Shown: piece by piece, positions 1,136 to 24,547 of the stretch
Layout: each line of letters opens with the position of its first letter
Position numbering within the stretch: the stretch's first letter is position 1
Assembly: GCF_000025505.1 (NCBI RefSeq)
Contig: NC_013849.1
Span: forward strand, 1,230,001-1,262,000
Length of the DNA: 32,000 nucleotides
Direction of reading: 5' to 3'
Origin: Ferroglobus placidus DSM 10642
GTDB lineage: Archaea; Halobacteriota; Archaeoglobi; Archaeoglobales; Archaeoglobaceae
The notes under the pieces: generated by a model
The model's database searches: none
The model's input: the letters and a program-made list of their open reading frames with translations, nothing else
Told to the model about the DNA's origin: nothing
Position numbers and translations under genes: made by a program

Positions 1136-1891
1136 TTATCTCACCTCTGAGTCGAGACCGATGTAAAACACCTTAGGCTTCGTTCCCATTTCAGGCTTTA
1201 AAACCTGAATTCTGTTCTCTTCCAGAATCTTATGGATCTCATCATTGGGATCTTTAAGATCTCCGAACTTTCTTGCTTGAGTCGGACAAACTTCAACACA
1301 TGCTGGCTTATATCCTTTCGTTACTCTGTGGTAGCACCACGTGCATTTGTCAGCAGTTCCCCTTCTGCTCTCTCTCGGACCATCAAAAGGATACAGATAT
1401 CGAGCTCCGTAAGGGCAGGCTTGAATGCAGTATCTGCAGCCTATGCAGTATTTCTCATCAACCAGAATCACACCATCTTTTGTTTTGTACGTCGCTCCAA
1501 CTGGACACACCTGAACGCATGGCGGACGGTCGCAGTGGTTGCAGAGCTTTGGAACGAAGTAGGACTTTGCTATAGCCCTCTCGTCGTAAATTGTCGGAAA
1601 GCCCTCCATACCTCCGTTGGGAGAGTCAACTTTCGGCTCCTTCTCTTCCTTCAACCAAACCCATCTCTCAACCCATGTTCTGAAGTAAAAGGGAAGCATC
1701 GGAACCTCGTTTTCTATTTTACAAGCCCTTACGCACCTTCCACAGCCAATGCACTTCCTCGTATCCACAACGAACGCGTAGTAGTGTGCGTTCCAGTCGT
1801 AGTCTTCGGTTGGTTCCGCAAAAGCTCTCCTTTTTATTCCGAAAATCCCGAATAAAGCTGTGAGAGCGAGCAAGAACTTCCTCCTCTTCAT
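1136..1891 (-). CDS. Tat-exported 4x[4Fe-4S] ferredoxin-type subunit (NrfC/PsrB/DmsB-like)
   Basis: 251-aa ORF with a twin-arginine signal MKRRKFLLALTALFGIFGIKRRAFA. Four Cys clusters are present: CIGCGRCVRAC, CNHCDRPPCVQVCP, CIGCRYCIQACP and CTWC...CVEVCP. Confidence 0.9.
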   Translation of the reverse strand: MKRRKFLLALTALFGIFGIKRRAFAEPTEDYDWNAHYYAFVVDTRKCIGCGRCVRACKIENEVPMLPFYFRTWVERWVWLKEEKEPKVDSPNGGMEGFPTIYDERAIAKSYFVPKLCNHCDRPPCVQVCPVGATYKTKDGVILVDEKYCIGCRYCIQACPYGARYLYPFDGPRESRRGTADKCTWCYHRVTKGYKPACVEVCPTQARKFGDLKDPNDEIHKILEENRIQVLKPEMGTKPKVFYIGLDSEVR

Positions 1892-2367
1892 TCAGTCACA
1901 CCTCCCTTGAACACCCACGGCGAATGCGGATCGTGACACTCTACGCACATTCTACCGTATCCGTGCTCGTCGGTAAACTTCTGCGGAAAACCGGCTGGAC
2001 GAGTGGGATTGTATTCGTGGCAAAGCTTACAGAGCTCCCTCGTCGTGTCTACAGTTGGATGGTACTTTTTCGGGTCCTTTACGTGCTTCATACTCGGTCC
2101 GTGGCAAGTTTCGCAGCTAAGAGTTCTGTGTGCTCCGTTTTCAAGAAAATCGTACCTTTCTTTGTGGCAATCAGCGCACATTTCCTTCGTTGCAAACTTC
2201 ATATCGAGCTGCATGATCTCTCTGACCGAATCTCCTCTAAACCATCTATACGTGTAGTCGTCCGTGAATTCTCCAAATGTCGGAGGTACTATGAAACTCC
2301 TAACTATCAGGAAGATTAGTATCGCCGATAGATACAGCGTTAAAGCCTTTGCGTGTATTCTCCTCAC
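1888..2367 (-). CDS. membrane-anchored tetrahaem c-type cytochrome
   Basis: 159-aa ORF with a GTG start preceded by GGAGGTGA. It has an N-terminal TM helix (LTLYLSAILIFLIVRSFIV) and four CxxCH motifs (CADCH, CETCH, CKLCH, CVECH). It shares a 4-nt overlap with the Fe-S gene. Confidence 0.9.
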   Translation of the reverse strand: MRRIHAKALTLYLSAILIFLIVRSFIVPPTFGEFTDDYTYRWFRGDSVREIMQLDMKFATKEMCADCHKERYDFLENGAHRTLSCETCHGPSMKHVKDPKKYHPTVDTTRELCKLCHEYNPTRPAGFPQKFTDEHGYGRMCVECHDPHSPWVFKGGVTE

Positions 2368-2554
2368 GATTTCACCTCCAATTAAAAATAACCTACCTTA
2401 AACCCGATCTTATGTATATTAATCTTTTCATTTTCGAGTTTCATACTTTAGAAAGCCGGAAACTAAAAAATATTTTTATTTTAAGTTCTTATTTTAAAGT
2501 GTTTGAAAATTTGCAAAAAAGGGTTAAGCGAGATTTAAAAATTAAATTTGAAAA

Positions 2555-2893
2555 TCAGTCCGCTCTTATCTCCGCCCACTTGTCCTCGCTTTCGTAAACT
2601 CTAACTCTGACAACGCTCAGTCCGCGATCTTTCAACCTTCTGAAGATCTCAAGACAGATGTTTTCGGAGGTCGGAATTTCAATTATCTCGTTAATTATCC
2701 TGTGGTCGAACTCCTTAAGAACTTCTTTCAACTCCTTTTTTAAGTCGAGGAAGTCCATAACCATTCCGTTCTCCTTTACTTCCCCTTCAATTTCCACCTC
2801 AACTTTGAAGTTATGTCCGTGGATCTTGCCACACTTCCAGTGTTCGGGAATGTAGTGAGCGGCGCTAAACACCTCGCTTACTCCGATCCTCAT
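2555..2893 (-). CDS. queD: 6-carboxy-5,6,7,8-tetrahydropterin synthase
   Basis: Internal Met of the 154-aa track ORF: MRIGVSEVFSAAHYIPEHWKCGKIHGHNFKVEVEIEG. It carries the CxxxHGH motif typical of QueD/PTPS. ATG 2893 overlaps the queE stop by 1 nt. Confidence 0.85.
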   Translation of the reverse strand: MRIGVSEVFSAAHYIPEHWKCGKIHGHNFKVEVEIEGEVKENGMVMDFLDLKKELKEVLKEFDHRIINEIIEIPTSENICLEIFRRLKDRGLSVVRVRVYESEDKWAEIRAD

Positions 2894-3567
2894 TACCTCA
2901 CCCCCAGATACTTGTGGACTTGAGGAATTATTCTTGCGTCGCTGAATTCGAGAATCGCTTCCTGCAATTTTAAAATGTTTTCCCCGAACGTTCCGAAGAC
3001 CGGCTGGAGCACGAAACACCTGACGTAATCTTTAATTTCCATCGCTGAATTTAACACTTCCTCGAAATTGAACTTCGGTGGAAGAACTATCTTGCAGAAG
3101 GTTACTCTCTTTCTCGTGTCTCTCAGAATTTTGTAACACTTTACGGTCCTTTCGAAAACCTCATCGTAATTTTCCACAGCCTCTCTAACCTTTAAATCTC
3201 CAGCAACTACGTCGAAAAACCTGACCTTCTTCGCTTTCTCTGGGAGAGTCATGTTTGATTCGAGGTAAAACTTCTTGGTTTTTTTGAGACTGGCTATGAA
3301 ATCTGCGTAAAGCAAAGGCTCTCCTCCCGTGAACGAAACGGAGTGGATTCTCTCGCTTTCGTCTATTATTCTCTGCACATAATCCAATTCTACGGGATTT
3401 TTTCTCACCTCGTTGTAAGCGTAGTTAACGCAATCCTCGTTGTAAGTTGTGTCGCAGTAGTAGCAGTTTAGGTTGCACCCGTAGAATCTGATGAAGAGCT
3501 GCCTAACGCCGCAGAAAATTCCCTCTCCTTGAATTGAGTAAAAAATCTCACTGATTTTTGCCTTCAT
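2893..3567 (-). CDS. queE: 7-carboxy-7-deazaguanine synthase (radical SAM)
   Basis: 224-aa ORF with N-terminal SIQGEG and the radical-SAM cluster motif CNLNCYYCDT. It lies between queC and queD. Confidence 0.85.
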   Translation of the reverse strand: MKAKISEIFYSIQGEGIFCGVRQLFIRFYGCNLNCYYCDTTYNEDCVNYAYNEVRKNPVELDYVQRIIDESERIHSVSFTGGEPLLYADFIASLKKTKKFYLESNMTLPEKAKKVRFFDVVAGDLKVREAVENYDEVFERTVKCYKILRDTRKRVTFCKIVLPPKFNFEEVLNSAMEIKDYVRCFVLQPVFGTFGENILKLQEAILEFSDARIIPQVHKYLGVR

Positions 3568-4279
3568 ACTCTTTCTTCTTCTCCTCGTAAATCTTTACAG
3601 CCCTCTCCCATTCTTCATCGCTCAAAAGCGGATCTTTAGCGTCGTTTAGAAGAAACGCTTCGGTCCTTTCCAAGCAGGTTCCGCAGCTAAGGCAAGGTCT
3701 CTCTCCTCCTTCGTAGCAGCTCCAAGTGTGTTCGTAGGGAACTTTAAGCTCCAAGCCGAGCTTGACGATCTCAGCTTTAGTCATGTCGACGAAGGGAGCG
3801 CGAAGCTCCACTGGCGTCCAGAGGTTCCCGAGGTATAAAGCTGTGTCCAACGCTTTTACGAACTCTTTTCTGCAGTCCGGATATACGCTGTAATCGCTTT
3901 TGTGAGCGGCGTAAAAAACTTCTGCCGCTCCAATTTTGACCGCATATCCGGCAGCTATCGAAAGTAATATCATGTTCCTGTTCGGGACGATCGTTCTTCT
4001 CTGAACTTCTTCCGTGTAAAAAGCTTTAGGCACGTCCTCATCCGAAGTCAACGCTCCTTTGGCTATGAGCTCGTGGATGGAAGAGATGTCAACAACTTTA
4101 TGCTCGACTTTTCCAACTTTTTTGGCTTCTTCAACTATCCTCTTCGAATACTCTATCTCTTTAGAGTGCCTCTGCCCGTAGTAAAAAGTTAGAGCGTGAA
4201 CCTCGTATCCCTTCTTCAATAGGTAATAGAGCAGAGTTGAGCTGTCTATCCCTCCGCTTAGTATGAGCACCCCTCTCAT
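3548..4279 (-). CDS. queC: 7-cyano-7-deazaguanine (preQ0) synthase
   Basis: 243-aa ORF with the PP-loop LSGGIDSS at the N-terminus and a C-terminal Zn-binding cysteine cluster CYEGGERPCLSCGTCLER. Confidence 0.9.
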   Translation of the reverse strand: MRGVLILSGGIDSSTLLYYLLKKGYEVHALTFYYGQRHSKEIEYSKRIVEEAKKVGKVEHKVVDISSIHELIAKGALTSDEDVPKAFYTEEVQRRTIVPNRNMILLSIAAGYAVKIGAAEVFYAAHKSDYSVYPDCRKEFVKALDTALYLGNLWTPVELRAPFVDMTKAEIVKLGLELKVPYEHTWSCYEGGERPCLSCGTCLERTEAFLLNDAKDPLLSDEEWERAVKIYEEKKKEYEGKNQ

Positions 4280-4591: not shown

Positions 4592-4619
4592 TTAAAAGTT
4601 GTTGTCGCTTCGAGCTGCT

Positions 4620-5747
4620 ATGGATGTGGTCGTTGCTGGAGTTGGTGTTGCCGGAAGCTTCGCTCTACATTACCTCCCGAAAAATTTTGAAGTTGTCGGA
4701 ATAGACAAAAGAACTAAACTCGGTTATCCGGTGGAGTGCGGAGAAATCGTTCCCGTTAAAAAGGAAATGAAAGCTCTTCTACCGAATCTGGACGATTACT
4801 CCATCTTCGAAATTCCGAAAAAGTTCGAGAGCAACAGGACGAGGTGGATGAAATTCGTCCTTCCAAATGGTAGAGAGATAGATGTCGAGTTCGAAATGCA
4901 CGTAATAAGGAGAGACGAGATGATCAGAACGTTGGCTGAAAACTCCGGGCATAGGCTAATTCTCGGAAAGACGTTCGATTTTGACGGTGATATCATTGTG
5001 GAGGGGAGAAGACTCGAAAGCAAAGTCATCATTGGCTCCGATGGAGCTAATTCGAGGATAAGGAGAAGACTCGGCTTAAAATTCGAAATCTCTCCGGCAA
5101 AGCAGTACGTAGTTAGGGGATTTGAGGGAGAGGAGGATACGATATACATGTACGTGGGAAAGAAAATTGCCGCCGGAGGCTACGCGTGGATAATCCCTAA
5201 AGGAGATAGTGTAGCTAACGTTGGGACTGGATTTAGAGCGGAATACGCTGAGAAAGGAGATAACATTCACAAAGCTCTCGATAGGTTTTTGAGAGAGTAT
5301 CCTTACAGCAGCAGGATGCTTAAAAAAGCTGAGATAATTCAGAAAATTGGAGCAGTCGTCCCTATCGACTTGCCGGTGAAAAGCGTTCACGGAAAAGTGA
5401 TTTTATCAGGAGATTCGGCGAGCATGATAATAAGTCACGTCGGAGCCGGCATCCCTCCTTCCATGGTCGCTGGAAAGATCGCTGCTGAGGTCGTTACGGA
5501 ATTCCTTAACGGAAGTGTAGAGCTTGAGGAATACGAGAGGAGGTGGAAGGATGCTATGTACGACGTCATGGTTAGAAGTAACTACTTAAAAAGGATGTGG
5601 GATAAAATAGCTGAGAGAGACGAGAGAGTGAACAAGCTCTTCAGAATCGTAAGCGAAAAAGATATGAGCGCAATTTTGCGAGCTAAAATTCCAATGAAAA
5701 TTAAATTTGCATCCATTTTACTTCCCGTAGTTACGACATTTTTGTAA
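4620..5747 (+). CDS. geranylgeranyl reductase-family FAD-dependent oxidoreductase
   Basis: Starts MDVVVAGVGVAGSF (GxGxxG dinucleotide fold), then GSDGANSRIR, GGYAWIIPKG and LSGDSAS, which match GGR family motifs. ATG 4620 is preferred over the track TTG 4599 because the TATA-like ATTTAAAAG lies about 25 nt upstream. Confidence 0.8.
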   Translation: MDVVVAGVGVAGSFALHYLPKNFEVVGIDKRTKLGYPVECGEIVPVKKEMKALLPNLDDYSIFEIPKKFESNRTRWMKFVLPNGREIDVEFEMHVIRRDEMIRTLAENSGHRLILGKTFDFDGDIIVEGRRLESKVIIGSDGANSRIRRRLGLKFEISPAKQYVVRGFEGEEDTIYMYVGKKIAAGGYAWIIPKGDSVANVGTGFRAEYAEKGDNIHKALDRFLREYPYSSRMLKKAEIIQKIGAVVPIDLPVKSVHGKVILSGDSASMIISHVGAGIPPSMVAGKIAAEVVTEFLNGSVELEEYERRWKDAMYDVMVRSNYLKRMWDKIAERDERVNKLFRIVSEKDMSAILRAKIPMKIKFASILLPVVTTFL

Positions 5748-5791: not shown

Positions 5792-6262
5792 GTGATAAAT
5801 ATGAGCCTTGAAAAAATGTTTCTCCACGAAAAAGTCGTGGACATCCTTCTGAAGATCCTTGAAGTTGAAAAGAGCGGGAAAGTGCCGTATCCGCTGAAAA
5901 TTTCGAAAGAGGTAGGTTCTCCGTACAGCTACATTTCCAAGGTCCTCAGCGAATTCGAAAAGCACGCGCTCATAGAGAGCGAGATGAAGGGGAGGAAGAG
6001 GACTGTAAAGCTCACGGAAGACGGCAGAAGAGTGGCTGAACTTCTGCAAAAGCTTAAAGAAGAATTAAAAAAGGACTTCGTCGCAAGGAAAAAGCTCGCG
6101 ATACTGAACTCATTCGTTCAGAGCTTGAACGGCTCGAACGTTAAAGAGGAGACGGTGTTGCCTCTCTTAGCTGAGGTGAGAAATTTAAAGAATACCGATG
6201 ACTTGGAAGTTAAGGAGAAAGCTGAAAGCCTCGAAAAATCGTTAATGGAGATGCTCAAATGA
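5792..6262 (+). CDS. winged-helix DNA-binding protein with C-terminal coiled coil
   Basis: 156-aa ORF (GTG 5792 or ATG 5801). The wHTH-like core is PLKISKEVGSPYSYISKVLSEFEKHALIESEMKGRKRTVKLTEDGRRV, followed by a K/E-rich helix. It shares an ATGA overlap with the next gene. Confidence 0.65.
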   Translation: MINMSLEKMFLHEKVVDILLKILEVEKSGKVPYPLKISKEVGSPYSYISKVLSEFEKHALIESEMKGRKRTVKLTEDGRRVAELLQKLKEELKKDFVARKKLAILNSFVQSLNGSNVKEETVLPLLAEVRNLKNTDDLEVKEKAESLEKSLMEMLK

Positions 6263-7458
6263 TGGAGAAAATTTTTGAAAGAGTTGAGAGTTACAGAGAC
6301 TTTTCCGTAGAAGTTCTTTCTAAGCTAATCGAAATAAAAGCTCTCTCTCCAGAAAACGGAGGGGATGGAGAGTACGAAAAAGCTGAATACGTCGAATCTC
6401 TCCTCGAAAACTTAAAGGTTAGGAGGTACGACGCTAAGGATGACAGAGTAAGCTCTGGAGTTCGACCCAACATAGTGGCTGAGCTTGAGGGGGAAGAGAA
6501 GAGAAGGCTCTGGATCGTCACGCACCTCGATGTCGTTCCGGAGGGAGACATTTCTCTGTGGGAGAGCGATCCGTTCAAAGCTGTTTACAAGGACGGCAAA
6601 GTCTATGGAAGGGGGAGCGAAGATAACGGGCAGAGCTTGGTCGGTTCGATAATAGCTGCTAAAGCTCTGATAGATCTTGAAATCACTCCAAAGTTAACAT
6701 TGTCCTTAGCCTTCGTTTCCGATGAAGAGACCGGAAGCAGGTACGGAATTCAGCATTTAATAAACTTGGGCGTTTTTCGCAAAGACGATCTAATTCTCGT
6801 CCCCGACGCCGGTTTTCCGAAGGGAGATAAAATAGAGATTGCGGAGAAAAACATCCTATGGTTGAAGATTACGGTTTTAGGAAAGCAAGGACATGCGAGC
6901 AGACCCGATTTGTGTAAAAATGCGAACAGAAAGGCAATGCAGCTGCTCGTCGAACTCGATAAAGAGTTGCATAAGAAGTTTTCTAAGAGAAACGACCTGT
7001 TTAACCCTCCTTATTCTACCTTCGAGCCTACGAAGAGGGAGAAAAATGTAGATAACATAAACACGATTCCGGGGAGAGACGTTAGCTACATAGACTGTCG
7101 AATTTTGCCGGAGTATAAGAACGAGGAAGTGATCGAATTCGTTAAAGAATTCGTTGAGAAAAGAAAGGAAGACTTTGAAGTTTTCGTCGACGTAGTTCAG
7201 GATGAGAGTTCCCCTCCAACGAAAGAAGACAGCGAGATCGTTCAGAGATTGATGAGGGCGATAAAAGTTGCGAGAAATATAGATGCCAAGCTTTGCGGAA
7301 TCGGAGGGAATACTTGTGCAGCTTTCTTCAGAAAAGCAGGGTTTGAAACAGCTGTCTGGAGCACGACGGACGGAAAAGCTCACGAGCCGAACGAATATGC
7401 GAAAATAGACAACCTGATAGAAGACGCCAAGGTTTTCGCTTTGCTGCCAGTTTTATGA
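6259..7458 (+). CDS. M20-family metallopeptidase/deacylase (ArgE/DapE-type)
   Basis: 399-aa ORF with THLDVVPEGD, GRGSEDNGQ and SDEETGS metal-ligand motifs typical of the ArgE/DapE/CPG2 family. Confidence 0.8.
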   Translation: MMEKIFERVESYRDFSVEVLSKLIEIKALSPENGGDGEYEKAEYVESLLENLKVRRYDAKDDRVSSGVRPNIVAELEGEEKRRLWIVTHLDVVPEGDISLWESDPFKAVYKDGKVYGRGSEDNGQSLVGSIIAAKALIDLEITPKLTLSLAFVSDEETGSRYGIQHLINLGVFRKDDLILVPDAGFPKGDKIEIAEKNILWLKITVLGKQGHASRPDLCKNANRKAMQLLVELDKELHKKFSKRNDLFNPPYSTFEPTKREKNVDNINTIPGRDVSYIDCRILPEYKNEEVIEFVKEFVEKRKEDFEVFVDVVQDESSPPTKEDSEIVQRLMRAIKVARNIDAKLCGIGGNTCAAFFRKAGFETAVWSTTDGKAHEPNEYAKIDNLIEDAKVFALLPVL

Positions 7459-7469
7459 GAAAAACTGTA

Positions 7470-7523
7470 GCTCCGCCAACCGACCCGTGCTCATGCTTGT
7501 CACACGGGCGTGAGAGGCGGAGC
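7470..7523. other. GC-rich two-helix hairpin (candidate small structured RNA or protein-binding element)
   Basis: GCTCCGCC (7470-7477) pairs with GGCGGAGC (7516-7523). The inner helix is CCCGTG/CACGGG with a 13-nt loop. By hand count 37 of 54 nt are G+C, in an otherwise AT-rich spacer. Confidence 0.3.
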
Positions 7524-7568
7524 CAATATAATTTCTGTTCTCCAACTATAAATGTTTTTCCTCGAATT

Positions 7569-7718
7569 TCAAGCTGAAAACTTCTTTAAAGTTCTTAGAA
7601 TTCTTTCTATCGCCCCTGCAAGCTCTACGTAAAATATAATCGCAAAAATAACGAGCTTGTATGCGTTGCCGAGCCTAACTTTTTGCGGTAGCAGAATAAT
7701 CAGCACGAGAAGCGGCAA
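7569..7718 (-). CDS. possible 49-aa small hydrophobic protein (very tentative)
   Basis: Hand translation from TTG 7718: LPLLVLIILLPQKVRLGNAYKLVIFAIIFYVELAGAIERILRTLKKFSA*. An ATG at 7746 lies in a different frame and stops after 23 codons. Confidence 0.15.
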   Translation of the reverse strand: MPLLVLIILLPQKVRLGNAYKLVIFAIIFYVELAGAIERILRTLKKFSA

Positions 7719-7910
7719 ATAAAGATACTTTCAGCGATGTTTTCATAGCACTAAATTCTTAAAACAGTTTAATAAACGTTGTCGAAAGGATTTTAGAGGA
7801 AGTTAAACTCGCTTAAAATTGCTGGGCAAACTCGTTACGATGAGCGAGTTTTTTATGGATCTACAAATCGCTTTAAACCCGTTAAATTCGACGAACGTCG
7901 ATACCAGAAA

Positions 7911-7921
7911 GTATTTAAAAA
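7911..7921 (+). promoter_or_regulatory. radA TATA box with purine-rich BRE-like AGAAAG
   Basis: CCAGAAAGTATTTAAAAAA is centred about 28 nt upstream of ATG 7944. No SD is present, which implies a leaderless or near-leaderless mRNA. Confidence 0.45.
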
Positions 7922-7943
7922 ACTCGATTGAAGCTTATGCAAT

Positions 7944-8966
7944 ATGGCTAAGAATAACAAGAAGGAAGAGAAGAACGAAAAAAACGAAGAATTGGTTGAG
8001 GAGTCGTTTAGGGAAATCGATCTTGAGGAATTGCCTAACGTAGGACCTTCAACAGCCGAAAAATTGAGAGAAGCCGGGTACTCTACGATAGAAGCAATTG
8101 CCGTTGCCTCTCCTCAGGAGTTAAGCTCAGCAGCTGACATTCCTGAAAGCACAGCTGCGAAAATAATTGCTGCAGCGAGAAAATTTGCGAACATCGGCGG
8201 ATTCGAAACGGGTTTGACGATCCTCGAAAGGAGGAAAAACATAGGTAAGATAACCACCGGGAGCAAAGCCCTCGACGATTTGCTTGGAGGAGGAGTGGAA
8301 ACTCAGGCTATCACCGAGCTTTTCGGCGAGTTTGGAAGCGGTAAAACTCAGATTTGCCATCAGCTTGCTGTGAACGTTCAGCTTCCAAAGGAAAAGGGTG
8401 GGCTTAACGGAGTTGTGGTGGTCATAGACACCGAAGGAACTTTCAGACCGGAGAGAATAGTTCAGATGGCTAAAGCAAAAGATCTCGATCCGGATGTGGC
8501 GCTGGAAAACATCTACGTTGCTCAGGCTTACAACTCCAATCACCAGATGCTTTTGGTAGACAACGCTAAGGAGTTGGCTAACAAGCTTAGAAAGGAAGGA
8601 AAACACGTGAGGCTGCTCGTTGTTGATTCGCTCACAGCCCACTTCAGAGCGGAGTACATAGGGAGAGGAACCTTGGCTGACAGGCAACAAAAGCTGAACA
8701 GACACCTCCACGATTTGCTTAGATTTGGAGAGTTGTTTAACGCTGCTATTGTCGTTACCAACCAAGTTATGGCTAAGCCGGACCAATTCTTCGGCGATCC
8801 GACGAAACCGGTTGGAGGACATATCGTGGCTCATACAGCGACATTCAGAGTCTATTTGAGGAAGAGTAAAGGCGAGCTGCGAGTTGCGAGGCTTATAGAT
8901 TCTCCACACTTGCCAGAGGCTGAGGCTGTGTTCAAAATAACGGAACGTGGAATAGAGGACAAGTAA
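7944..8966 (+). CDS. radA: DNA repair and recombination protein RadA
   Basis: 340-aa ORF with the N-terminal HhH region [17 protein letters not shown], Walker [10 protein letters not shown] and Walker B LLVVDS. The C-terminal part is typical of RadA. A K/E-rich extension of about 20 aa precedes the HhH. Confidence 0.95.
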
Positions 8967-8967
8967 A

Positions 8968-8977
8968 CTTAATATAC
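8968..8977 (+). promoter_or_regulatory. TATA-like element for the KaiC-like operon
   Basis: CTTAATATAC is centred about 29 nt upstream of ATG 9002. Confidence 0.35.
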
Positions 8978-9001
8978 TTTTGAAAATCATTGAAATTTGA
9001 C

Positions 9002-9814
9002 ATGAGAATTAGAAGCGGAATTTACGGTTTAGACGAGCTGCTCGGCGGAGGATTTCACAGTAACTCGGTCGTTGTGGTAGTCGGGACTTCCGGCACGGGA
9101 AAAACGATATTCTCCCTTCAAACGCTACTTGAAGGGTTGAGAAACGGAAGCAGGGGAATTTACATTTCTTTCGAATTCGGAGAGAAGGACGTTATAAGGC
9201 TCGCGAAATCTCTCGGCTGGGACGAATTGGAAGATTACATCAATGGCGGGGAGCTCGAAGTTAGAAATTTCTACGCCGAGAACGTTTCGCTTTTAAGCAC
9301 CGATCTCGTTTCCATCGTTAACGGAGCGTCAAAAGCGGATAGAATCGCTATAGATTCATTTACTCCTCTTATTTCTCCGATCGACATTAACGCAAGAAGA
9401 GACGTGAACTGGCTTTTTAGCAAGCTCAGAGAAAAGGAGCTCGCAGTAGTTACGGTTGAAGAACCTTTGAACGGAGATCTCGGAAGACCCGACGTCTCCA
9501 TTCCGGTGTTTTTAGCCGACACTGTGATAAACCTCAAAAATCTCGGCTACGGCGAGCCTTTCAACAGGACGATTCAGATAATAAAGCATCGCGCTTCTTG
9601 GCATGCGGAGGGAGTTTTCCCCTACAAAATTCTCCCGGGTCTCGGAATAGTCGTTGAGGGATACGAAACGGAGGAGGAAGAGGTAGAAGAGATCGTCGAA
9701 AAATTCAGAGGACTTCCGGAAAAAGTAAGAAAACTTGCTGAGGAAATAGCGAAAATAACGGGAAAGGATGCGGAAAAGTACGTAAAATTGCTGATGGAGA
9801 GGTATGAGGTCTAA
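9002..9814 (+). CDS. single-domain KaiC-like (RecA-superfamily) ATPase
   Basis: MRIRSGIYGLDELLGGGF, Walker A GTSGTGKT, IYISFEF and Walker-B-like RIAIDSF, with an acidic/helical tail of about 55 aa. ATG 9002 is preferred over the track TTG 8990. Confidence 0.8.
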   Translation: MRIRSGIYGLDELLGGGFHSNSVVVVVGTSGTGKTIFSLQTLLEGLRNGSRGIYISFEFGEKDVIRLAKSLGWDELEDYINGGELEVRNFYAENVSLLSTDLVSIVNGASKADRIAIDSFTPLISPIDINARRDVNWLFSKLREKELAVVTVEEPLNGDLGRPDVSIPVFLADTVINLKNLGYGEPFNRTIQIIKHRASWHAEGVFPYKILPGLGIVVEGYETEEEEVEEIVEKFRGLPEKVRKLAEEIAKITGKDAEKYVKLLMERYEV

Positions 9815-10151
9815 AATAGCTGGAATCCTTGAGCCGATAGCTGAAGACGAAGCCATTGCCGGAGTAGTTCTCTACAGAATAGACGGTACTCTGATCTACT
9901 CCAAGCTGAAAAGAGATCCCAAGCTCGTGTTGGCTTTGCACAACCTTGAAGAGCAGATAAAAAGCATGCTTTATTATATATTTACGAGAAACTTAAAGGA
10001 CTCGGTAATTGAAACGGCAGATTTTCGCTTCGATCTGAGACCGATCTCGAAGACCCTTGTTCTCGGAATAATTTATTACCCCTCCCACTATCACAAGCTC
10101 GATGTAGATATCAAAACAATAATAAATAACCTGAGAAGTTACTTGTTCTAA
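9804..10151 (+). CDS. Roadblock/LC7 (MglB-like) domain protein (tentative)
   Basis: 115-aa ORF. The pattern ILEPIAEDEAIAGVVLYRIDGTLIYS...VIETADFRFDLRPISKTLVLGIIY fits the Roadblock alpha-beta pattern. The start lies 11 nt inside the upstream ORF. Confidence 0.5.
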   Translation: MRSKIAGILEPIAEDEAIAGVVLYRIDGTLIYSKLKRDPKLVLALHNLEEQIKSMLYYIFTRNLKDSVIETADFRFDLRPISKTLVLGIIYYPSHYHKLDVDIKTIINNLRSYLF

Positions 10152-11488
10152 TGGAAGCAGAAATAGTAACTGTTCCAGGAACGAAAGCGTCTACCGTTAA
10201 CAGATTGCTTCGAAAAAAATTTGAAAGGATTAAATTCAAACCTGACTTCGCTTTGATATTTATTACTTCAAGATTGTATGATGAGCATAAGCATGTTCTC
10301 GATTTTATAAAAAATTCTCTTAAGTGTGATTCTGTGGCGTTTTTCATCGAAGCTTACGGGGGAGAGGAGGGTAGTTGGGCTCAGGGAGTGGCAGTAGCAT
10401 TGTTCAGCGGAGACGTCGGGGTTTTTCAGACAGGAAAGGGGCACATTTTGGAGGAGCTCGAAAGCATCGGAAGGAGACTCAGAAGCTACGATGCGGCGAT
10501 GGCGATATATCCTCTATTTTACTTCCCATCAAGAAGAGAGATTTTCGAAACTATTACGAGAGAGAAATTTTATGCAAGAAGGTACAATTCTTGCTCCGAC
10601 TTAGAATGTAAAAAAAGCGTCCTTGAAAATTTTTCCAATTACCTAATCAGAAATAGAATCGTAATGCCAGCAAACGAAGTTATGAGAGCTTTATCCACTT
10701 CGAAAATACCTGTTGCCGGAATAAATCTTTTCCCGATGGAGGCTCGTTTTAACACGCCAAAGATATTCAGGAATTACGAGGAGATAGGAAGAAACGCCCT
10801 CGTTCTCGGATTCAAGAATGCGAAAGTCCACTTTCACGAAATTTATCCAGAGAGGGGCAAAAGCTTCGAAGAAACCCTCGAAATTTTGGAGAGCGTTTTG
10901 CAAGTTAAGGAAGTTACAAAGGCTGTGAAGAAAGGCGTGGCGATAGGAGAAGTTGGAGGGATGAGGGTAGTGGACTATGCGAGAAAGTTCATGTACATGG
11001 AGGAAATGACCGAAGAAAAATTTGTTTCTGGTATTGAGCGAGGGGAATTTATAACGTATTCTCCTTATGCTCTGGCTTTCGTCAGCAGAGAAACTCACGG
11101 TGTGGCTGGATTGGGGTTAGCTAATGTGCCTATTTCGCTTTATCCTTCTGTTTTTATGCTTGACGGATTTTATGATGAGTGTATTATGGTTGGCGAAGTG
11201 TTTAGAGGAGGTATACAAAAATTTGCAGAAGTTAAAGATCTTAAAACTGATGCGAATATTAGATTTTACTTTATCGATGCAAATACCATTTTAGCTTTTA
11301 GGGGGGAAATATCAGAGATTACGAATGCGATTAAAGCTGAAGAGATAAAAGGAACGAAATGGTTAGCTTTATACGTAACTCCGCCATCAGCGTATTTGCC
11401 AGTGAAGCATAAAAAGTTTCTTTCAGAAATTAACAAAGATATTATGTATTTTGGCTCTGGAACGAATTTACTATTCGAAATAAAATAG
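10151..11488 (+). CDS. 445-aa hypothetical protein; N-terminal third FIST-like (tentative)
   Basis: TAATG junction with the upstream gene. KPDFALIFITSRLYDEHKHVLDFIKNSLKCDSVAFFIEAYGGE...GVAVALFSGDV resembles the FIST_N pattern. The rest is unassigned. Confidence 0.3.
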   Translation: MEAEIVTVPGTKASTVNRLLRKKFERIKFKPDFALIFITSRLYDEHKHVLDFIKNSLKCDSVAFFIEAYGGEEGSWAQGVAVALFSGDVGVFQTGKGHILEELESIGRRLRSYDAAMAIYPLFYFPSRREIFETITREKFYARRYNSCSDLECKKSVLENFSNYLIRNRIVMPANEVMRALSTSKIPVAGINLFPMEARFNTPKIFRNYEEIGRNALVLGFKNAKVHFHEIYPERGKSFEETLEILESVLQVKEVTKAVKKGVAIGEVGGMRVVDYARKFMYMEEMTEEKFVSGIERGEFITYSPYALAFVSRETHGVAGLGLANVPISLYPSVFMLDGFYDECIMVGEVFRGGIQKFAEVKDLKTDANIRFYFIDANTILAFRGEISEITNAIKAEEIKGTKWLALYVTPPSAYLPVKHKKFLSEINKDIMYFGSGTNLLFEIK

Positions 11489-12340
11489 TACTGCATATAT
11501 TATTGTGAAGAAGAAGCCAGCATATACAGTCATCTGAACTCTTCTGGCAAGTTCGAAGGATATTGCCCAATTTTCTTTAGAGCTCTTGACGAAATAGTAT
11601 GCTGGAATTAGAGAGAAAGCTATCGGGAAAATCGGAGATATTTTTATGAATTTTTGTGAAAATGCTGCAAAAGTTATGTAGAACAGTATGTTTAAGCAGA
11701 AGAAAGTTTTTATCAAATTTTCAGCTTCAAAAACAACTCCGAGCGTCTTCCATCCAGCTCTTCTATCTTCACTTATATCTTTTAAATCTTTTATAAATAC
11801 CGTCGAAATAACAAAGGGTGAGAAGGAAAGGGAAAGCAATACAGCCTTATCGTTTATCGGCTTCACGAGGTCGTGGAGAGAAAGAATGAAGGAGGGTACG
11901 CAGACGATATACGTGAGAAGCTCAGTTGCGTAATGCTTCTTCAATCTTAATTTTGTGATCATGTTGTCCGAGTAGAGGAAAGTTAGAAGTAAAACGATGG
12001 TGAAGAGTATTTTTCCGAGCGGAGTCGAGGAGAGGGTGAAGAAAATTACTAACGATAGAGCATATGCTAAGAAAACATATGCAGTTGTAGCCTTTCTAAC
12101 GTTATCGTAAATAAAGGGAGTGTTTTTCCCTGCCTCAAAATCCTCTTTGTAGTCGTTTACGTGATTCCAGAGGTTTAGTGCTGAGTAAAACAGAGACGTG
12201 AACAGAATTACGATAGCGATATCAAGCAAACTCCCATCGGCGAAACCGACGATCAAAATCGGAAGAAGGGGGATAGGATAAAAGATTGTGGGTGGCTTAG
12301 CCGAATATGCTATCACAGCTTTTATTAAATTCTTGTCCAT
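11471..12340 (-). CDS. UbiA-family aromatic/isoprenoid prenyltransferase (polytopic membrane protein)
   Basis: 289-aa hydrophobic ORF with the Asp-rich motifs NHVNDYKED (NxxxDxxxD) and DLKDISEDRRAG (DxxDxxxD). Confidence 0.8.
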   Translation of the reverse strand: MDKNLIKAVIAYSAKPPTIFYPIPLLPILIVGFADGSLLDIAIVILFTSLFYSALNLWNHVNDYKEDFEAGKNTPFIYDNVRKATTAYVFLAYALSLVIFFTLSSTPLGKILFTIVLLLTFLYSDNMITKLRLKKHYATELLTYIVCVPSFILSLHDLVKPINDKAVLLSLSFSPFVISTVFIKDLKDISEDRRAGWKTLGVVFEAENLIKTFFCLNILFYITFAAFSQKFIKISPIFPIAFSLIPAYYFVKSSKENWAISFELARRVQMTVYAGFFFTIIYAVLFYFE

Positions 12341-17179: not shown

Positions 17180-17863
17180 GTGGGTAGGAGAGCTTTGAGG
17201 AAGGACGAGAGGGGAGCGATAGGCATTGAGATACTGATAGTGTTCATAGCGATTGTGCTTGTAGCGGCAGTGAGTGCTGCGGTGCTGATTCAGACCGTCG
17301 GTTATCTACAGCAGAAGGCTACTGCTACCGGAAGAGAAACTACACAAGAAGTTGCAAGTGGTATTAAAGTAGTGAGAGTGTTAGGATATGTTCCGGACCC
17401 TAAGCAGAGTTACAGCAACATAACTAAGCTGGCAATAATCGTTGAAGTGAATACTGGTGGACAGGAGATTGATTTAACGACTACGAGAATAATTCTGTCC
17501 AATGAAACGAAAACGTTAACACTCTACTACGATGATGCAGCGACGAATAAATCATTTACCGATGCATCTACCGGTGTAAGCGATCTATTCGACGATACGC
17601 TGGATGCTTGGGCTTTCTTGGGAAGTACGGAGTTTGGTATAATCGTTCTCCAAGACGAGGACGACTCTCTCTCTGACTCGTATCCTGTATTGAATAAAGG
17701 AGACAAGGTTGCGCTAACGATAAATGTACAATCAGCGTTTGGAACAGGATTCTATCCGAGAGAAGACGTTAGCGGTGAGGTTAGACCTGAACTTGGAGCA
17801 CCAGGAATAATAGAGTTCGTAACTCCACCGGCATACACAACTAAAGTAATAGAACTGCAGTAA
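17180..17863 (+). CDS. arlB: archaellin (FlaB/ArlB)
   Basis: Class III signal peptide plus hydrophobic core: [53 protein letters not shown]. Three N-x-S/T sequons (NIT, NET, NKS). The GTG start has an SD. Confidence 0.9.
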
Positions 17864-17870
17864 ACCTAAA

Positions 17871-17893
17871 TTTTTTCAAAATTTTTTATTTTT
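17871..17893 (+). terminator. oligo-T tracts after arlB (archaeal intrinsic termination/attenuation signal)
   Basis: T6 at 17871-17876, T6 at 17882-17887 and T5 at 17889-17893, with a further T5 at 17907-17911 before the arlC SD GAGGTGG. Confidence 0.45.
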
Positions 17894-17922
17894 ATCATCT
17901 TCAAAATTTTTGAGGTGGTATC

Positions 17923-18408
17923 ATGCTCAAACTCTTTAGAAGAAAGAAGAAGGAAGAAGAGGAGGTGGTGGAGGAAGAAACGGAGGAGGAAGTTGGAGAG
18001 GTTGAGTCGGTTGAAGAGAAAAAGGAGGAGGAAGAAGACCTGATAATGAAGATTAACGAGAGACTCAACGAAATCGAAAACAGGTTGCCGAGGATCGATG
18101 TGTCGATCTCCAACTTGAAGAGGGAGATAGACGGGTTGAAGGAGAACATTCAGAAGCTTGAAGACTCGATAAAGGACATGATGGCTCTTTACGAAGTAGT
18201 CTCGGCTCAGATAAACCCCTTCGTCGGACAGTCGAAGGTCACTGCAATAAGCGTTGAAAGGCTGAACGAGATGGAGAGGAAAATAAACTCGATCGAGGAC
18301 GTCATAAGAGACTTGCGCCTCGATCTGAGGTATTTGTTTAGGAGTTTTGTAAACGTGAGGGAGATCGTTAACGAGGTAATTTACGAAGAGGTGATAAGTC
18401 TTGAATGA
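17923..18408 (+). CDS. arlC: archaellum accessory protein, FlaC-type coiled-coil domain (ArlC-like)
   Basis: 161-aa ORF with an acidic N-terminus. The coiled coil ends in DMMALYEVVSAQINPFV, typical of the FlaC/D/E N-domain. Confidence 0.75.
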   Translation: MLKLFRRKKKEEEEVVEEETEEEVGEVESVEEKKEEEEDLIMKINERLNEIENRLPRIDVSISNLKREIDGLKENIQKLEDSIKDMMALYEVVSAQINPFVGQSKVTAISVERLNEMERKINSIEDVIRDLRLDLRYLFRSFVNVREIVNEVIYEEVISLE

Positions 18409-19234
18409 AGATAATCGAAACATAATAAGGCTTGAAGAGCTCGAAGAGGGGCATAAAAAGTATTTAAGCAATAGCGAGCTTAAAAGCAAGCTTGAAAGTT
18501 ACAAAGGCAGAGTTCCTGCCGTTATTCTCAACGACATATACGAGTTGCTCAAGGGGAAAAAAGTTACTGAGGAGCAGTTGGAGAAAATCGTTTCGAGGAT
18601 AGAGAACAAGTTAAAGCAAACGGGCGGAGAAAACGTTGGAGAGCTCGTAGAAAAAATAGACAGATTGGAAAAGACCCTCTCGACGTTTTTAAAGAAATTC
18701 GAAGAGGAAATTGGGGAAAGAGCGAGAAAAAGGCTTGAAGAGGCTTACGAAGAGTTTTACGAATCTCCTGAGGTGACGGAAGAGAAGAAGGAGGAAGTAG
18801 AAAAAAAGGTGGAAGAAAGCAAAGAGCAGCCGAAGGTCGTGGAAGTGGACGAAGTGATTCCCAAGAGGGCTGTGAAGCTGGCTTCTATTCCGAACACAAC
18901 TAAAGCTATGATGTTCCTTCTCAAGTGGATAGAGTTCATGATAGAGAGGGTTGGCTACGATGGGTTAAACGATCTCCTTGATTACTACGTGGACATCGGC
19001 TGGATTTCGGAGGACGTCATGTTTGACGTGATGAGGTACGCTAAGGGAATAAAGCTCTACCACGAAAAGGCAGACTGGAGACCCATTGGCTATATGAACG
19101 TTCAGGATCACCTTATGTCTTTGCTTTTCATCGAAGCTTTGAGGACGGGAAGGATGAACAGAGACCTTTTGCTCGAAGTGGAGAGGCAGATATACAGGAT
19201 AAAGAAGGAGGTCAGCGAGATCAATGGGATTTAG
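18401..19234 (+). CDS. arlD: archaellum accessory protein FlaD/E (ArlD/E)
   Basis: 277-aa ORF with TTG start 18401 after GAGGTGA. The C-terminal domain is AMMFLLKWIEFMIERVGYDGLNDLLDYYVDIGWISEDVMFDVMRYAKGI, the FlaD/E signature. Confidence 0.8.
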   Translation: MNEDNRNIIRLEELEEGHKKYLSNSELKSKLESYKGRVPAVILNDIYELLKGKKVTEEQLEKIVSRIENKLKQTGGENVGELVEKIDRLEKTLSTFLKKFEEEIGERARKRLEEAYEEFYESPEVTEEKKEEVEKKVEESKEQPKVVEVDEVIPKRAVKLASIPNTTKAMMFLLKWIEFMIERVGYDGLNDLLDYYVDIGWISEDVMFDVMRYAKGIKLYHEKADWRPIGYMNVQDHLMSLLFIEALRTGRMNRDLLLEVERQIYRIKKEVSEINGI

Positions 19235-19658
19235 CACCACTGCAGCTTTCGTCATACTGTTCATTCTCTCTTTAGCGATAGTGGGAGTTGCTTACTCAAC
19301 TTTTTACTCTCAAATCAAGGATTACGTTTACCAACTGAAGGAGGAGAGGGAAAAAGCCGTAGAAAAAGCCAACACTAAGCTGAGCATAGTGTCCATCTCT
19401 GCGGTAGGGTCAGCAACGACCCACAACTTGACGATGGTCGTCGAAAACACCGGCACAACTACGCTTAACGTTAGCAAGTTCGACCTCCTCGTTGACGGTT
19501 CTCTTGTGGACTTCGCTTACAACAGAACGGTACTTTATCCGGAAACCACGGTGGAAATAACGTCTTCAAATCTCGCTGGAGGTACGAACACAACTCATAG
19601 GCTGAAACTCGTAGCAGATAACGGTTATGCGATCTATGCAACATACACGGTGAGCTGA
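19224..19658 (+). CDS. arlF: archaellum protein FlaF (ArlF); the F/G assignment could be swapped
   Basis: 144-aa ORF with an MGFSTTAAFVILFILSLAIVGVAY N-terminal anchor followed by a beta-rich domain, at the expected operon position. Confidence 0.65.
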   Translation: MGFSTTAAFVILFILSLAIVGVAYSTFYSQIKDYVYQLKEEREKAVEKANTKLSIVSISAVGSATTHNLTMVVENTGTTTLNVSKFDLLVDGSLVDFAYNRTVLYPETTVEITSSNLAGGTNTTHRLKLVADNGYAIYATYTVS

Positions 19659-19659
19659 A

Positions 19660-20097
19660 ATGGGATTCGGGGAGGTAGCGTCGCATTTAATTCTGTTCAT
19701 TGCGGCGGTAATAATAGCCTCCTCAGCTTCAGCGATAATGTTCGTTACCGTGCAAAAAATAAGTATAGAAGCTGGTGAGCAGGGGGAAATTTTGAAAAAG
19801 GTAATAGGTACCGATTTTTCCATAATAAACGATCCAGCAAATGTAATTTACAATTCGACCCTCGGTGCTTACGTCATCTACATCAAGAACACGGGGACTG
19901 AGGAAATTCTTCTGACGAATAACACTTTGACCGTTATTCTCAACGGTCAGGTCGTTAATTTTCAATCTGACAGAGTTTTAATAAAGCCCGGGGAAACTGC
20001 TACGATTTACGTTTACTCTCCGCAAATAAACGGTGATGCTAAGCTGATAGTCGTCACGGATGTTGGCGTAAAGAAAACTTTCGAGTTCTCGGGGTGA
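19660..20097 (+). CDS. arlG: archaellum protein FlaG (ArlG); the F/G assignment could be swapped
   Basis: 145-aa ORF with an archaellin-like N-terminal helix ASHLILFIAAVIIASSASAIMF followed by a beta-rich domain. Confidence 0.65.
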   Translation: MGFGEVASHLILFIAAVIIASSASAIMFVTVQKISIEAGEQGEILKKVIGTDFSIINDPANVIYNSTLGAYVIYIKNTGTEEILLTNNTLTVILNGQVVNFQSDRVLIKPGETATIYVYSPQINGDAKLIVVTDVGVKKTFEFSG

Positions 20098-20101
20098 GAG
20101 C

Positions 20102-20797
20102 ATGGTAAATCTTTTCTCGGTTCAAATAGAAAACGACGAGTTCCACAAAAAAATTGGTGGCGGTTTGCCCAAGGGTACTTTCGGCTTAATCATCGGGGAG
20201 AGCGGCAGTGGAAAGAGCGTGGTCTGTCAGAGAATGACGTACGGGTTGCTGAAAAATGACGTCTCCGTTAGCTACGTGTCTTCTCAGCTTACAACTGTAG
20301 ATTTCATAAAGCAAATGGCGAGTTTGGGTTATGGCGTTGAAAAATTCATAATTTCCGGAAAGTTGAAGTTTTTTCCCGTTTACCCCCTCATAAGCGAGGT
20401 AAAGAAGAGGGAGAGGTATATAGAGAAACTAATTTCCGGCAGACACATTTTTGAAAGCAACGTGATAGTTATCGACTCTCTCTCAGCCCTCGTAAAATTC
20501 GATATAAACCCCGATTCAGCCATAGACCTCGTAAGCTTCATCAAGAGAGTCGTTGCGACGGGAAAAGCGGTTGTAGCAACACTCGTTCCCGGGGAGATAG
20601 ACGAATCATCTTTCCTCGAATTAGAGAGTGCAGCCACTTTTGTGGCTGAATGCAGCTTGAGGAAGTTTGGAGCTGATATAAAGAACACCATGACGATCAA
20701 GAAATACAACTTGGCTCAAATGCAGTACCAGAAGCAGATCGCATTCAGAGTCGAGCCGAAGATCGGCTTGGTCGTTGAAATAGCGGCGGTGGCGTAA
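20102..20797 (+). CDS. arlH: archaellum KaiC-like ATPase FlaH (ArlH)
   Basis: 231-aa ORF with Walker A GESGSGKS and Walker B VIVIDSLS, immediately upstream of arlI. Confidence 0.85.
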   Translation: MVNLFSVQIENDEFHKKIGGGLPKGTFGLIIGESGSGKSVVCQRMTYGLLKNDVSVSYVSSQLTTVDFIKQMASLGYGVEKFIISGKLKFFPVYPLISEVKKRERYIEKLISGRHIFESNVIVIDSLSALVKFDINPDSAIDLVSFIKRVVATGKAVVATLVPGEIDESSFLELESAATFVAECSLRKFGADIKNTMTIKKYNLAQMQYQKQIAFRVEPKIGLVVEIAAVA

Positions 20798-22444: not shown

Positions 22445-22448
22445 GAGC

Positions 22449-24116: not shown

Positions 24117-24214
24117 CGGTAGATAAATTTAATAATATATTCTAAATGATCTTCATCAATTTGTCGAAAATGCTTATATATCATTGTCATGATAATAGTT
24201 ATAGGTGTTCTTCC

Positions 24215-24547
24215 ATGTTCGAGACGCCCCACTTCATCACTATCGACCCCCACATCCTCAGGAGTATAAATAAAAGTGTTTTGAGAAAAAAAGTGCTTTT
24301 TTACCTTTACAGCATTTACCCCAACTATGACTACCTCGCCAACATCTCGAGAAGGGTGAGGAGCGATCCCACAAACGTTCTTGGCTGTTTGAAGGGAATG
24401 GGTAACAGGTACAACGGTTCGAGTTCTTTAATAGAGCTCGGACTCGTTGAAGTTGTAGAGAAGGACGGCTACAAGTACTATCGTATAACGGATCTTGGAA
24501 GGAAAGTAGTGGAATACGTCAGGGAAGTTTATGGTGATTACATATGA
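24215..24547 (+). CDS. small winged-helix DNA-binding protein
   Basis: 110 aa from ATG 24215 (the track ORF starts at 24146). TATA-like CTTATATAT lies about 35 nt upstream. wHTH pattern: YLANISRRVRSDPTNVLGCLKG...LVEVVEKDGYKYYRITDLGRKV. Confidence 0.6.
   Translation: MFETPHFITIDPHILRSINKSVLRKKVLFYLYSIYPNYDYLANISRRVRSDPTNVLGCLKGMGNRYNGSSSLIELGLVEVVEKDGYKYYRITDLGRKVVEYVREVYGDYI

Follow-up and report, generated by a model that had tools for sequence, protein, structure and literature searches.

We asked what role is played by three overlapping genes that lie directly downstream of the recombinase gene radA in the archaeon Ferroglobus placidus DSM 10642. The genes sit within a 32,000-nucleotide stretch of contig NC_013849.1 (positions 1,230,001 to 1,262,000 of the forward strand), which was analysed as a whole and is called the window here, with its first letter as position 1. 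All three are open reading frames (ORFs) on the plus strand: ORF1 (9002-9814, 270 residues) encodes a KaiC-type ATPase, ORF2 (9804-10151, 115 residues) a protein of the Roadblock/LC7/MglB fold and ORF3 (10151-11488, 445 residues) a divergent FIST protein. We refer to them as the triad. The next gene downstream, on the minus strand, encodes a UbiA-family membrane prenyltransferase (11471-12340, 289 residues). Our favoured reading, a composite claim to which we give a probability of roughly 45%, is that the triad is an uncharacterised sensor-adaptor-ATPase switch tied to UbiA and to prenyl-lipid or quinone metabolism. The original prediction, made from the letters of the window, had described the triad as an uncharacterised ATPase-adaptor-sensor module, a description that the Roadblock, FIST and synteny results bear out. 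It had also left open a role in DNA damage or in motility and polarity, and this was its weak part: radA adjoins the triad at 14 of 21 loci and does so within wider synteny, the archaellum neighbourhood is not conserved, and the UbiA neighbour had been overlooked.

Conservation of the triad and its UbiA neighbour

Related loci were gathered through exact-protein look-ups and one metagenome scan, which returned 41 loci, and neighbouring genes were annotated with hidden Markov models built from the partner proteins; the counts that follow are over judgeable loci. The triad was found in about 42 lineages at 90 % identity, with junctions that overlap or abut at every locus examined (overlaps of 0-32 nucleotides), and these lineages keep the three-gene order, which had been the earlier question of synteny in relatives. 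A KaiC gene lies upstream of the FIST-like gene at 23 of 23 loci and a small Roadblock-like gene at 28 of 30, while a convergent UbiA gene follows the FIST-like gene at 32 of 32, within 50 nucleotides or fewer in 31. The suggested company of radA holds upstream of the KaiC gene at 14 of 21 loci and is missing at 7; that of the archaellum (arl) genes was not seen at other loci.

Identity to the window proteins across loci is 78-86 % for RadA, 44-56 % for the KaiC partner, 23-43 % for the small protein, 29-40 % for the FIST-like protein and 27-38 % for UbiA, whose rate of divergence equals that of ORF3. Because the triad is conserved while its proteins have diverged to 23-56 % and RadA stays within its narrow range, we conclude that the linkage has been kept through deep sequence divergence. 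The range of the triad is narrow, comprising mainly Archaeoglobi plus at least one family member from Methanonatronarchaeia.

An unbiased clustering of all neighbouring ORFs at 45 loci gave a similar picture. UbiA was recovered at 37 loci (convergent, after the FIST-like gene), the small protein at 33 and KaiC at 31 (both upstream), and radA at 16 (upstream of KaiC). Further out, a DUF502 gene occurs at 11 loci, directly beyond UbiA in 10 and elsewhere in the window; a GGR-type reductase at 8, beyond UbiA and on its strand in 7 and upstream in the window; TFS at 8, beyond UbiA; and, upstream of radA, an M20 peptidase at 8 and a winged helix-turn-helix (wHTH) protein at 7. The block of KaiC, Roadblock, FIST and UbiA genes thus remains intact while the genes flanking it vary between loci.

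The UbiA gene itself was assigned through Pfam PF01040 (E 5e-17); it reached no NCBIfam equivalog cut-off and had no match in the PDB sequence search. Its 3′ end and that of ORF3 are convergent and overlap by 18 nucleotides. GGR-type genes beyond UbiA include L009:3923-4984 and L016:3978-5180, whereas the one in the window (4599-5747) occupies the opposite flank of the block, three genes upstream of radA. The recurring position of GGR fits a functional pair of UbiA and GGR.

Upstream of the triad, radA (7944-8966, plus strand, 340 residues; NCBIfam recomb_radA, E 1e-163, above cut-off) ends in a TAA stop at 8964-8966. The order of an ArnR1-like wHTH gene, an M20 peptidase gene and radA (5792-8966 in the window) recurs in 7-8 other loci, L029 and L043 among them, which makes the adjacency of radA part of a wider gene-order block in one subclade and therefore weakens a functional reading of it. 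Some triad-adjacent radA genes are about 2.4-2.5 kb long (L008:4603-7038, L031:2106-4643 and L051:2231-4666); the radA of L008 is interrupted by an intein that carries a LAGLIDADG homing endonuclease, and the radA of the window has no intein.

The 35-nucleotide gap between radA and ORF1 holds a TATA-like element read from the sequence, TTAATATA (8969-8976, plus strand), with 25 nucleotides between its end and ATG 9002, in agreement with the claim that the triad has such an element of its own. Most relatives carry a canonical TFB recognition element and TATA box (BRE/TATA), aaaaNNTTTATA, 25-35 nucleotides before the KaiC ATG, several of them with a spacing identical to that in the window. Since relatives have aaaaNNTTTATA at equivalent spacing, TTAATATA is probably real and not a product of chance AT-richness. 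Judging from these motifs, the triad probably has its own promoter, and its mRNA would be leaderless or carry a short leader, with its start at ATG 9002 or close to it. As the start of ORF1, an in-frame TTG at 8990 was considered and set aside, ATG 9002 suiting the TATA spacing better, yet the N-termini of homologs are 4-7 residues longer, so the TTG may still be the true start. Within the triad, the ORF2 start (ATG 9804) sits 11 nucleotides inside ORF1 and is directly preceded by GGAGAGGT, and ORF2 and ORF3 meet in a TAATG at 10149-10153 with a 1-nucleotide overlap, both junctions being where the proposal of translational coupling had placed them. As the genes overlap here and in relatives, coupled translation and a matched stoichiometry of the three proteins would be expected.

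The three proteins and a paralogous pair

ORF1 matches the Pfam KaiC family (PF06745) over residues 4-218 with 130.2 bits against a cutoff of 26.6 (E 1e-37), which upholds its description as KaiC-like. The closest PDB sequence is KaiC 8zn5 (E 6e-51), with the CI half scoring better, and the same search gave E 4e-15 for Sso2452 and E 4e-4 for RadB. The motifs picked out before, Walker A GTSGTGKT, SFEF and Walker B RIAIDSF, are all present, as is a charged, acidic helical C-terminal tail (residues ~221-270). The 32 family members compared all retain Walker A (GxxGxGKT), Walker B (hhhDSF) and KHRxSxH. The SFEF site (residues 56-59, window 9167-9178) does stand in place of the usual two Glu of KaiC, as had been noted, but it is atypical even within the ORF1 family: 31 of the 32 members have SFD[M/L/I] in place of the Glu-Glu pair, and SFEF occurs in the window protein only, the Ferroglobus protein alone having Glu at the first position. 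A lone acidic residue at the Glu-Glu position is the state of RecA, RadA and DnaB. At the positions aligned to the phospho-acceptors S431/T432 of KaiC, ORF1 has V-F, and all relatives are hydrophobic there. From these residues we expect ORF1 to bind ATP; hydrolysis would be plausible and possibly slow, and autophosphorylation of the KaiC type at the canonical site is not expected.

Three more specific assignments of ORF1 were tried and rejected, and the protein reaches none of the NCBIfam cut-offs set for ArlH, RadB or KaiC_arch_3/4. As ArlH it scores 53.6 bits against a cutoff of 215 (NF052589), and the archaellum operon has an ArlH of its own at 20102-20797. As RadB it scores 24.6-25.4 bits against cut-offs of 172 and 278, with the P-loop region alone matched. 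As a circadian clock KaiC it reaches 81 bits against a cutoff of 546 (NCBIfam circ_KaiC), being a single domain of 270 residues with neither the Glu-Glu pair nor the phosphosites.

The single sequence of ORF2 had no match in NCBIfam or in the Pfam copy scanned (which lacks PF27410 and PF27411), no match to Roadblock_LC7 (PF03259) at E<=1 and no match in the PDB sequence search, although a protein 100 % identical to it (P0010) has a precomputed match to Pfam PF27410 'AF0774'. Its AlphaFold2 (AF2) model, for which only three sequences were used, has a predicted local distance difference test score (pLDDT) of 84 and a predicted template modelling score (pTM) of 0.79, and the predicted fold follows the alpha-beta-beta-alpha-beta-beta-beta order of Roadblock proteins. 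A Foldseek comparison of the model with the PDB returned 89 matches at E<=1e-3. The top 50 are all Roadblock, LC7, MglB or LAMTOR proteins at probability 1.00, with template modelling (TM) scores of 0.5-0.76 and the maximum to Myxococcus xanthus MglB. A profile of 26 ORF2 family sequences matches MglB (E 1.8e-5), the Asgard Robl_LC7 protein 7f8f (E 2.5e-4) and DYNLRB2 (E 3.7e-4), and PF03259 is matched weakly by 4 of the 26 relatives (best E 0.033). Since the fold matches and the family-profile matches agree, we conclude that ORF2 is a divergent but genuine Roadblock-superfamily protein. The Roadblock/LC7 assignment of the original prediction was to fall if neither profile nor structure comparison found such similarity, and both found it. 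A small GTPase was likewise said to be missing from the window, and none was found among the window ORFs of at least 100 residues scanned with Pfam; the genes called at related loci did not include one either.

The assignment of ORF3 comes from its family. The window protein had no match in Pfam (both FIST models included), NCBIfam or the PDB sequence search, although P0002, which is 100 % identical to residues 62-445, has PF27411 'AF0772_C'. All ORF3 family members have PF27411 and several also have a weak PF08495; in a scan of the family, FIST_N (PF08495) is matched by 14 of 24 members, with a best E of 7e-9. A second tier of ~420-residue proteins is picked up by the family profile as well, and 15 of 15 tested are canonical FIST_N proteins. 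An hhalign comparison of the family with canonical FIST proteins gave 99.6 % probability (E 1e-23) over 377 columns, from residue 2 to residue 430. The AF2 model of ORF3 (pTM 0.84, pLDDT 80) has three significant PDB folds, all FBXO22, at E 9e-5 to 3e-4 over ~415 columns. Taken together, these comparisons indicate that ORF3 is FIST-like along its entire length, with the FIST_C assignment being indirect. The earlier suggestion of FIST similarity therefore stands, but its confinement to the N-terminal third does not, given that the alignment spans nearly the whole protein. The protein can be divided into a FIST_N-like N-terminus, a helical insert (~128-184) and the PF27411 region, equivalent to the C half of FIST, and it carries a family-specific conserved acidic motif, YPERGxSxEETxEIL, together with invariant D376 and E426.

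In the public gene call (P0002, 384 residues) ORF3 begins at GTG 10334, which drops the first 61 residues and with them part of the FIST_N-like region (window 10151-10336). We favour the 445-residue form, because homologs of 441-451 residues align from residue 1 and because of the TAATG coupling to ORF2. The family is small, with 9 clusters in a word-indexed search of 5.8 billion proteins and 33 representatives at E<1e-30 in an exhaustive search of 1.84 billion. A full-length member outside Archaeoglobi comes from Methanonatronarchaeum sp. AMET6-2 (P0053/P0091, Methanonatronarchaeia; E 9e-46 to the family profile), and NCBI names the Methanonatronarchaeum member 'FIST N-terminal domain-containing protein'. 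A distant full-length member, P0054 (FIST + AF0772_C), lies at a contig end (L011:66-7451), and the co-directional genes that follow it mostly have no Pfam match, with the addition of an HNH_repeat and an RNase_H_2 protein. These surroundings look like a virus or mobile element, unlike the usual UbiA neighbourhood.

The canonical FIST proteins of the second tier share a local layout with the triad in that a gene for a protein of 120-123 residues lies directly upstream. These upstream genes are related to ORF2 (E 1e-8 for L013, ~1e-3 for L055 and L057), and we refer to the two genes together as the paralogous pair (L055:4037-7254, L057:711-3988, L013:36-1737 and L012:1-1682). The genes around it encode UbiA, UbiD, AcnX, two GGR-type reductases, FAD_binding_3, an amine-oxidase/phytoene-desaturase-like protein and a 290-residue protein that has a DDLAD motif and matches terpene synthase below threshold (E 7.5e-5), and a canonical KaiC with the Glu-Glu pair is found nearby. 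The triad and the paralogous pair probably coexist in one genome, since the samples that gave L057 and L058 also gave the triad loci L009 and L010, and L055 is on a contig of 242.6 kb, close in size to the 242.7-kb contig of triad locus L005.

Proposed role and rival explanations

We propose that the three proteins would be subunits of one cytoplasmic regulatory complex. ORF3 would serve as a FIST-type ligand-binding sensor of a small molecule, ORF2 as a dimeric adaptor of the Roadblock/MglB type, and ORF1 as a CI-like KaiC ATPase that is expected to bind ATP but has a weakened catalytic site, with one acidic residue (usually Asp) in place of Glu-Glu, and lacks phospho-acceptors of the KaiC type. 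Occupancy of the FIST ligand site would be passed through the Roadblock dimer to the ATPase, in a manner analogous to the action of MglB on MglA. The output would be a change in the nucleotide or oligomeric state of the ATPase, which may behave as a slow switch. As the most probable target we would name the neighbouring UbiA, and thus prenyl-lipid or quinone metabolism or membrane status, in place of RadA or the archaellum. The link to UbiA is drawn because UbiA is convergent at every one of the 32 judgeable loci, GGR lies beyond it in 7, and the paralogous pair is found among UbiA, UbiD and GGR genes. The more specific proposition, that a protein of the Roadblock/MglB type regulates a KaiC-type ATPase instead of a small GTPase, is driven by FIST and controls a membrane prenyltransferase, is tentative, and we lean against it.

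Several points weigh against the switch we favour. What we say of the function of the triad is suggested by gene order within essentially one class, nearly all loci coming from one archaeal class, and genes whose 3′ ends overlap are hard to separate, so the association with UbiA could have been inherited as gene order. Nor do convergent genes share a transcript. Ligand binding by FIST is itself a prediction for most family members, FIST_C (PF10442) is matched by 0 of 24 ORF3 family members even though the hhalign alignment still reaches residue 430, and the global TM of the matches between ORF3 and FBXO22 is poor (~0.2). No Roadblock protein is known to regulate an ATPase of the RecA superfamily. 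No publication was found on an association of KaiC, Roadblock and FIST or on AF0772/AF0774, in a search that did not take in the 2017 mBio survey of Makarova, Galperin and Koonin (mBio 8:e01959-17, cited in PMC5847659 and PMC4858521), which may list the arrangement; that survey reportedly proposed archaeal KaiC-centred signalling modules.

Other explanations draw on the same evidence. If the triad does not signal, the FIST-like protein might be an enzyme or substrate-binding subunit, with the KaiC-type ATPase and the Roadblock protein as an assembly or chaperone machine for a prenylated product or for UbiA. The invariant UbiA neighbour would suit this, as would the embedding of the paralogous pair in biosynthetic genes (UbiA, UbiD, GGR-type, amine-oxidase/phytoene-desaturase-like and terpene-synthase-like), and YPERGxSxEETxEIL with D376 and E426 could form a catalytic or metal-binding site. 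However, no FIST protein is known as an enzyme, proteins of the Roadblock and KaiC types usually have regulatory roles, and ORF3 showed no similarity to a catalytic domain in Pfam, PDB sequence or fold searches, so that we consider this explanation unlikely. Somewhat less probable still is that the KaiC-type ATPase acts with RadA, as a recombination mediator or DNA-damage signalling ATPase like RadB or aRadC/Sso2452, and that ORF2 and ORF3 are its regulators, expressed alongside radA. The two are co-directional and only 35 nucleotides apart, they adjoin at two thirds of the judgeable loci, the adjacency holds even where radA bears an intein, and ORF1 belongs to the RecA superfamily with weak similarity to RadB and Sso2452. 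Against this, radA does not adjoin in one third of the loci, the triad has a promoter element of its own, and ORF1 is far closer to KaiC than to Sso2452 or RadB and falls below the RadB cut-offs. The wHTH and M20 peptidase genes upstream of radA are conserved in the same loci, which points to plain synteny of a subclade. Going by gene numbering, the triad of Archaeoglobus fulgidus, after whose genes the two Pfam families are named, may also be without an adjoining radA.

A generic KaiC module for stress or timing, whose output has nothing to do with its neighbours and whose adjacency to radA and UbiA is inherited gene order, is about as improbable as the RadA explanation. Archaeal KaiC-like ATPases have been portrayed as general hubs of signalling whose partners vary (PMC5847659, PMC4858521), and almost all triad loci come from one class with extended synteny, but the block that includes UbiA stays intact while the flanking genes differ, and the independent paralogous pair again lies near a UbiA gene. 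By analogy with Myxococcus MglB and with ArlH, the triad might instead act on the archaellum and serve motility or polarity, which we regard as highly improbable. MglB is the best structural match of ORF2, some type IV pilus loci of archaea are reported to include Roadblock proteins (PMC4858521), and in the window the arlB-arlJ operon with earA begins at 17180, 5.7 kb past the end of ORF3. Yet at other loci the 6-8 kb around the triad contained no archaellum genes, and as this neighbourhood is not conserved the archaellum link was rejected; the operon has its own ArlH, ORF1 reaches a quarter of the ArlH cut-off (54 of 215 bits), and five unrelated genes separate ORF3 from arlB (UbiA, TmcA, ASCH, DUF502 and one unknown ORF).

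The archaellum locus of the window (17180-25419) is complete, with arlB, arlD/E, arlF/G-like, arlH, arlI and arlJ followed by genes for an EarA-like regulator and an S-adenosylmethionine (SAM) methyltransferase, and no che genes were found among the ORFs scanned. At the other end of the window (1136-4279), and unrelated to the triad, a 4Fe-4S dicluster protein and a multihaem c-type cytochrome are encoded beside a queC-queE-queD cluster for the preQ0/archaeosine precursor.

Relation to known systems and significance

The triad represents a different set of partners within the archaeal KaiC-centred modules, with the ORF2 and ORF3 families catalogued in Pfam after A. fulgidus genes and uncharacterised. 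In common with those modules it has a single-domain KaiC ATPase encoded with small partners predicted to read or set the state of the ATPase, and it is archaea-specific and uncharacterised. It differs in that the partners are a Roadblock/MglB-fold protein and a FIST protein instead of KaiB/thioredoxin-like, Death-like, MEDS or helix-turn-helix proteins, and in that ORF1 lacks the second catalytic Glu. Cyanobacterial KaiC shares Walker A, Walker B and the KxRxxxH...PF motif with ORF1, but it has two domains (CI+CII, ~500 residues) where ORF1 has one, and the Glu-Glu pair, the S431/T432 acceptors and the KaiA/KaiB partners are all absent from the triad. ArlH (FlaH) and RadB/aRadC are likewise single-domain archaeal ATPases of RecA/KaiC-like type whose role is regulatory or mediating, not that of a motor, although ORF1 is far below the model cut-offs of ArlH and RadB (54 against 215 bits and 25 against 172-278 bits).

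The other two proteins invite comparison with systems outside the KaiC family. MglA-MglB and Rag-Ragulator/LAMTOR resemble the triad in that ORF2 has a fold of the MglB type, including the C-terminal helix, and is encoded beside a P-loop nucleoside triphosphatase (NTPase) with a weak-looking hydrolytic site. Here the adjoining NTPase is of the KaiC type within the RecA superfamily and not Ras-like, and the scanned window ORFs contained no small GTPase. Among FIST proteins (PF08495/PF10442), for which human FBXO22 is a solved example, ORF3 appears homologous over its whole length to the stand-alone members, while being very divergent, with its helical insert and a motif of its own, and standing alone with no fused output domain or F-box.

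Archaeal KaiC-like ATPases are proposed central hubs of signalling, yet inputs, partners or outputs are known for hardly any of them. The triad is compact and conserved, and it brings together a sensor type that can be recognised (FIST), an adaptor whose fold controls small GTPases elsewhere (Roadblock/MglB) and a candidate target in the UbiA prenyltransferase, in hosts that are hard to manipulate genetically. If the three proteins do form a complex, it would be the first partnership of a Roadblock protein with a RecA-type ATPase, and it would give FIST domains, which are widespread and poorly understood, a tractable prokaryotic system. Were a Roadblock protein indeed to regulate the KaiC-type ATPase, the ancient Roadblock platform for NTPase regulation would have been paired anew with another class of P-loop switch, and archaea would have a new route by which a metabolite signal may be coupled to the prenylation of lipids or quinones.

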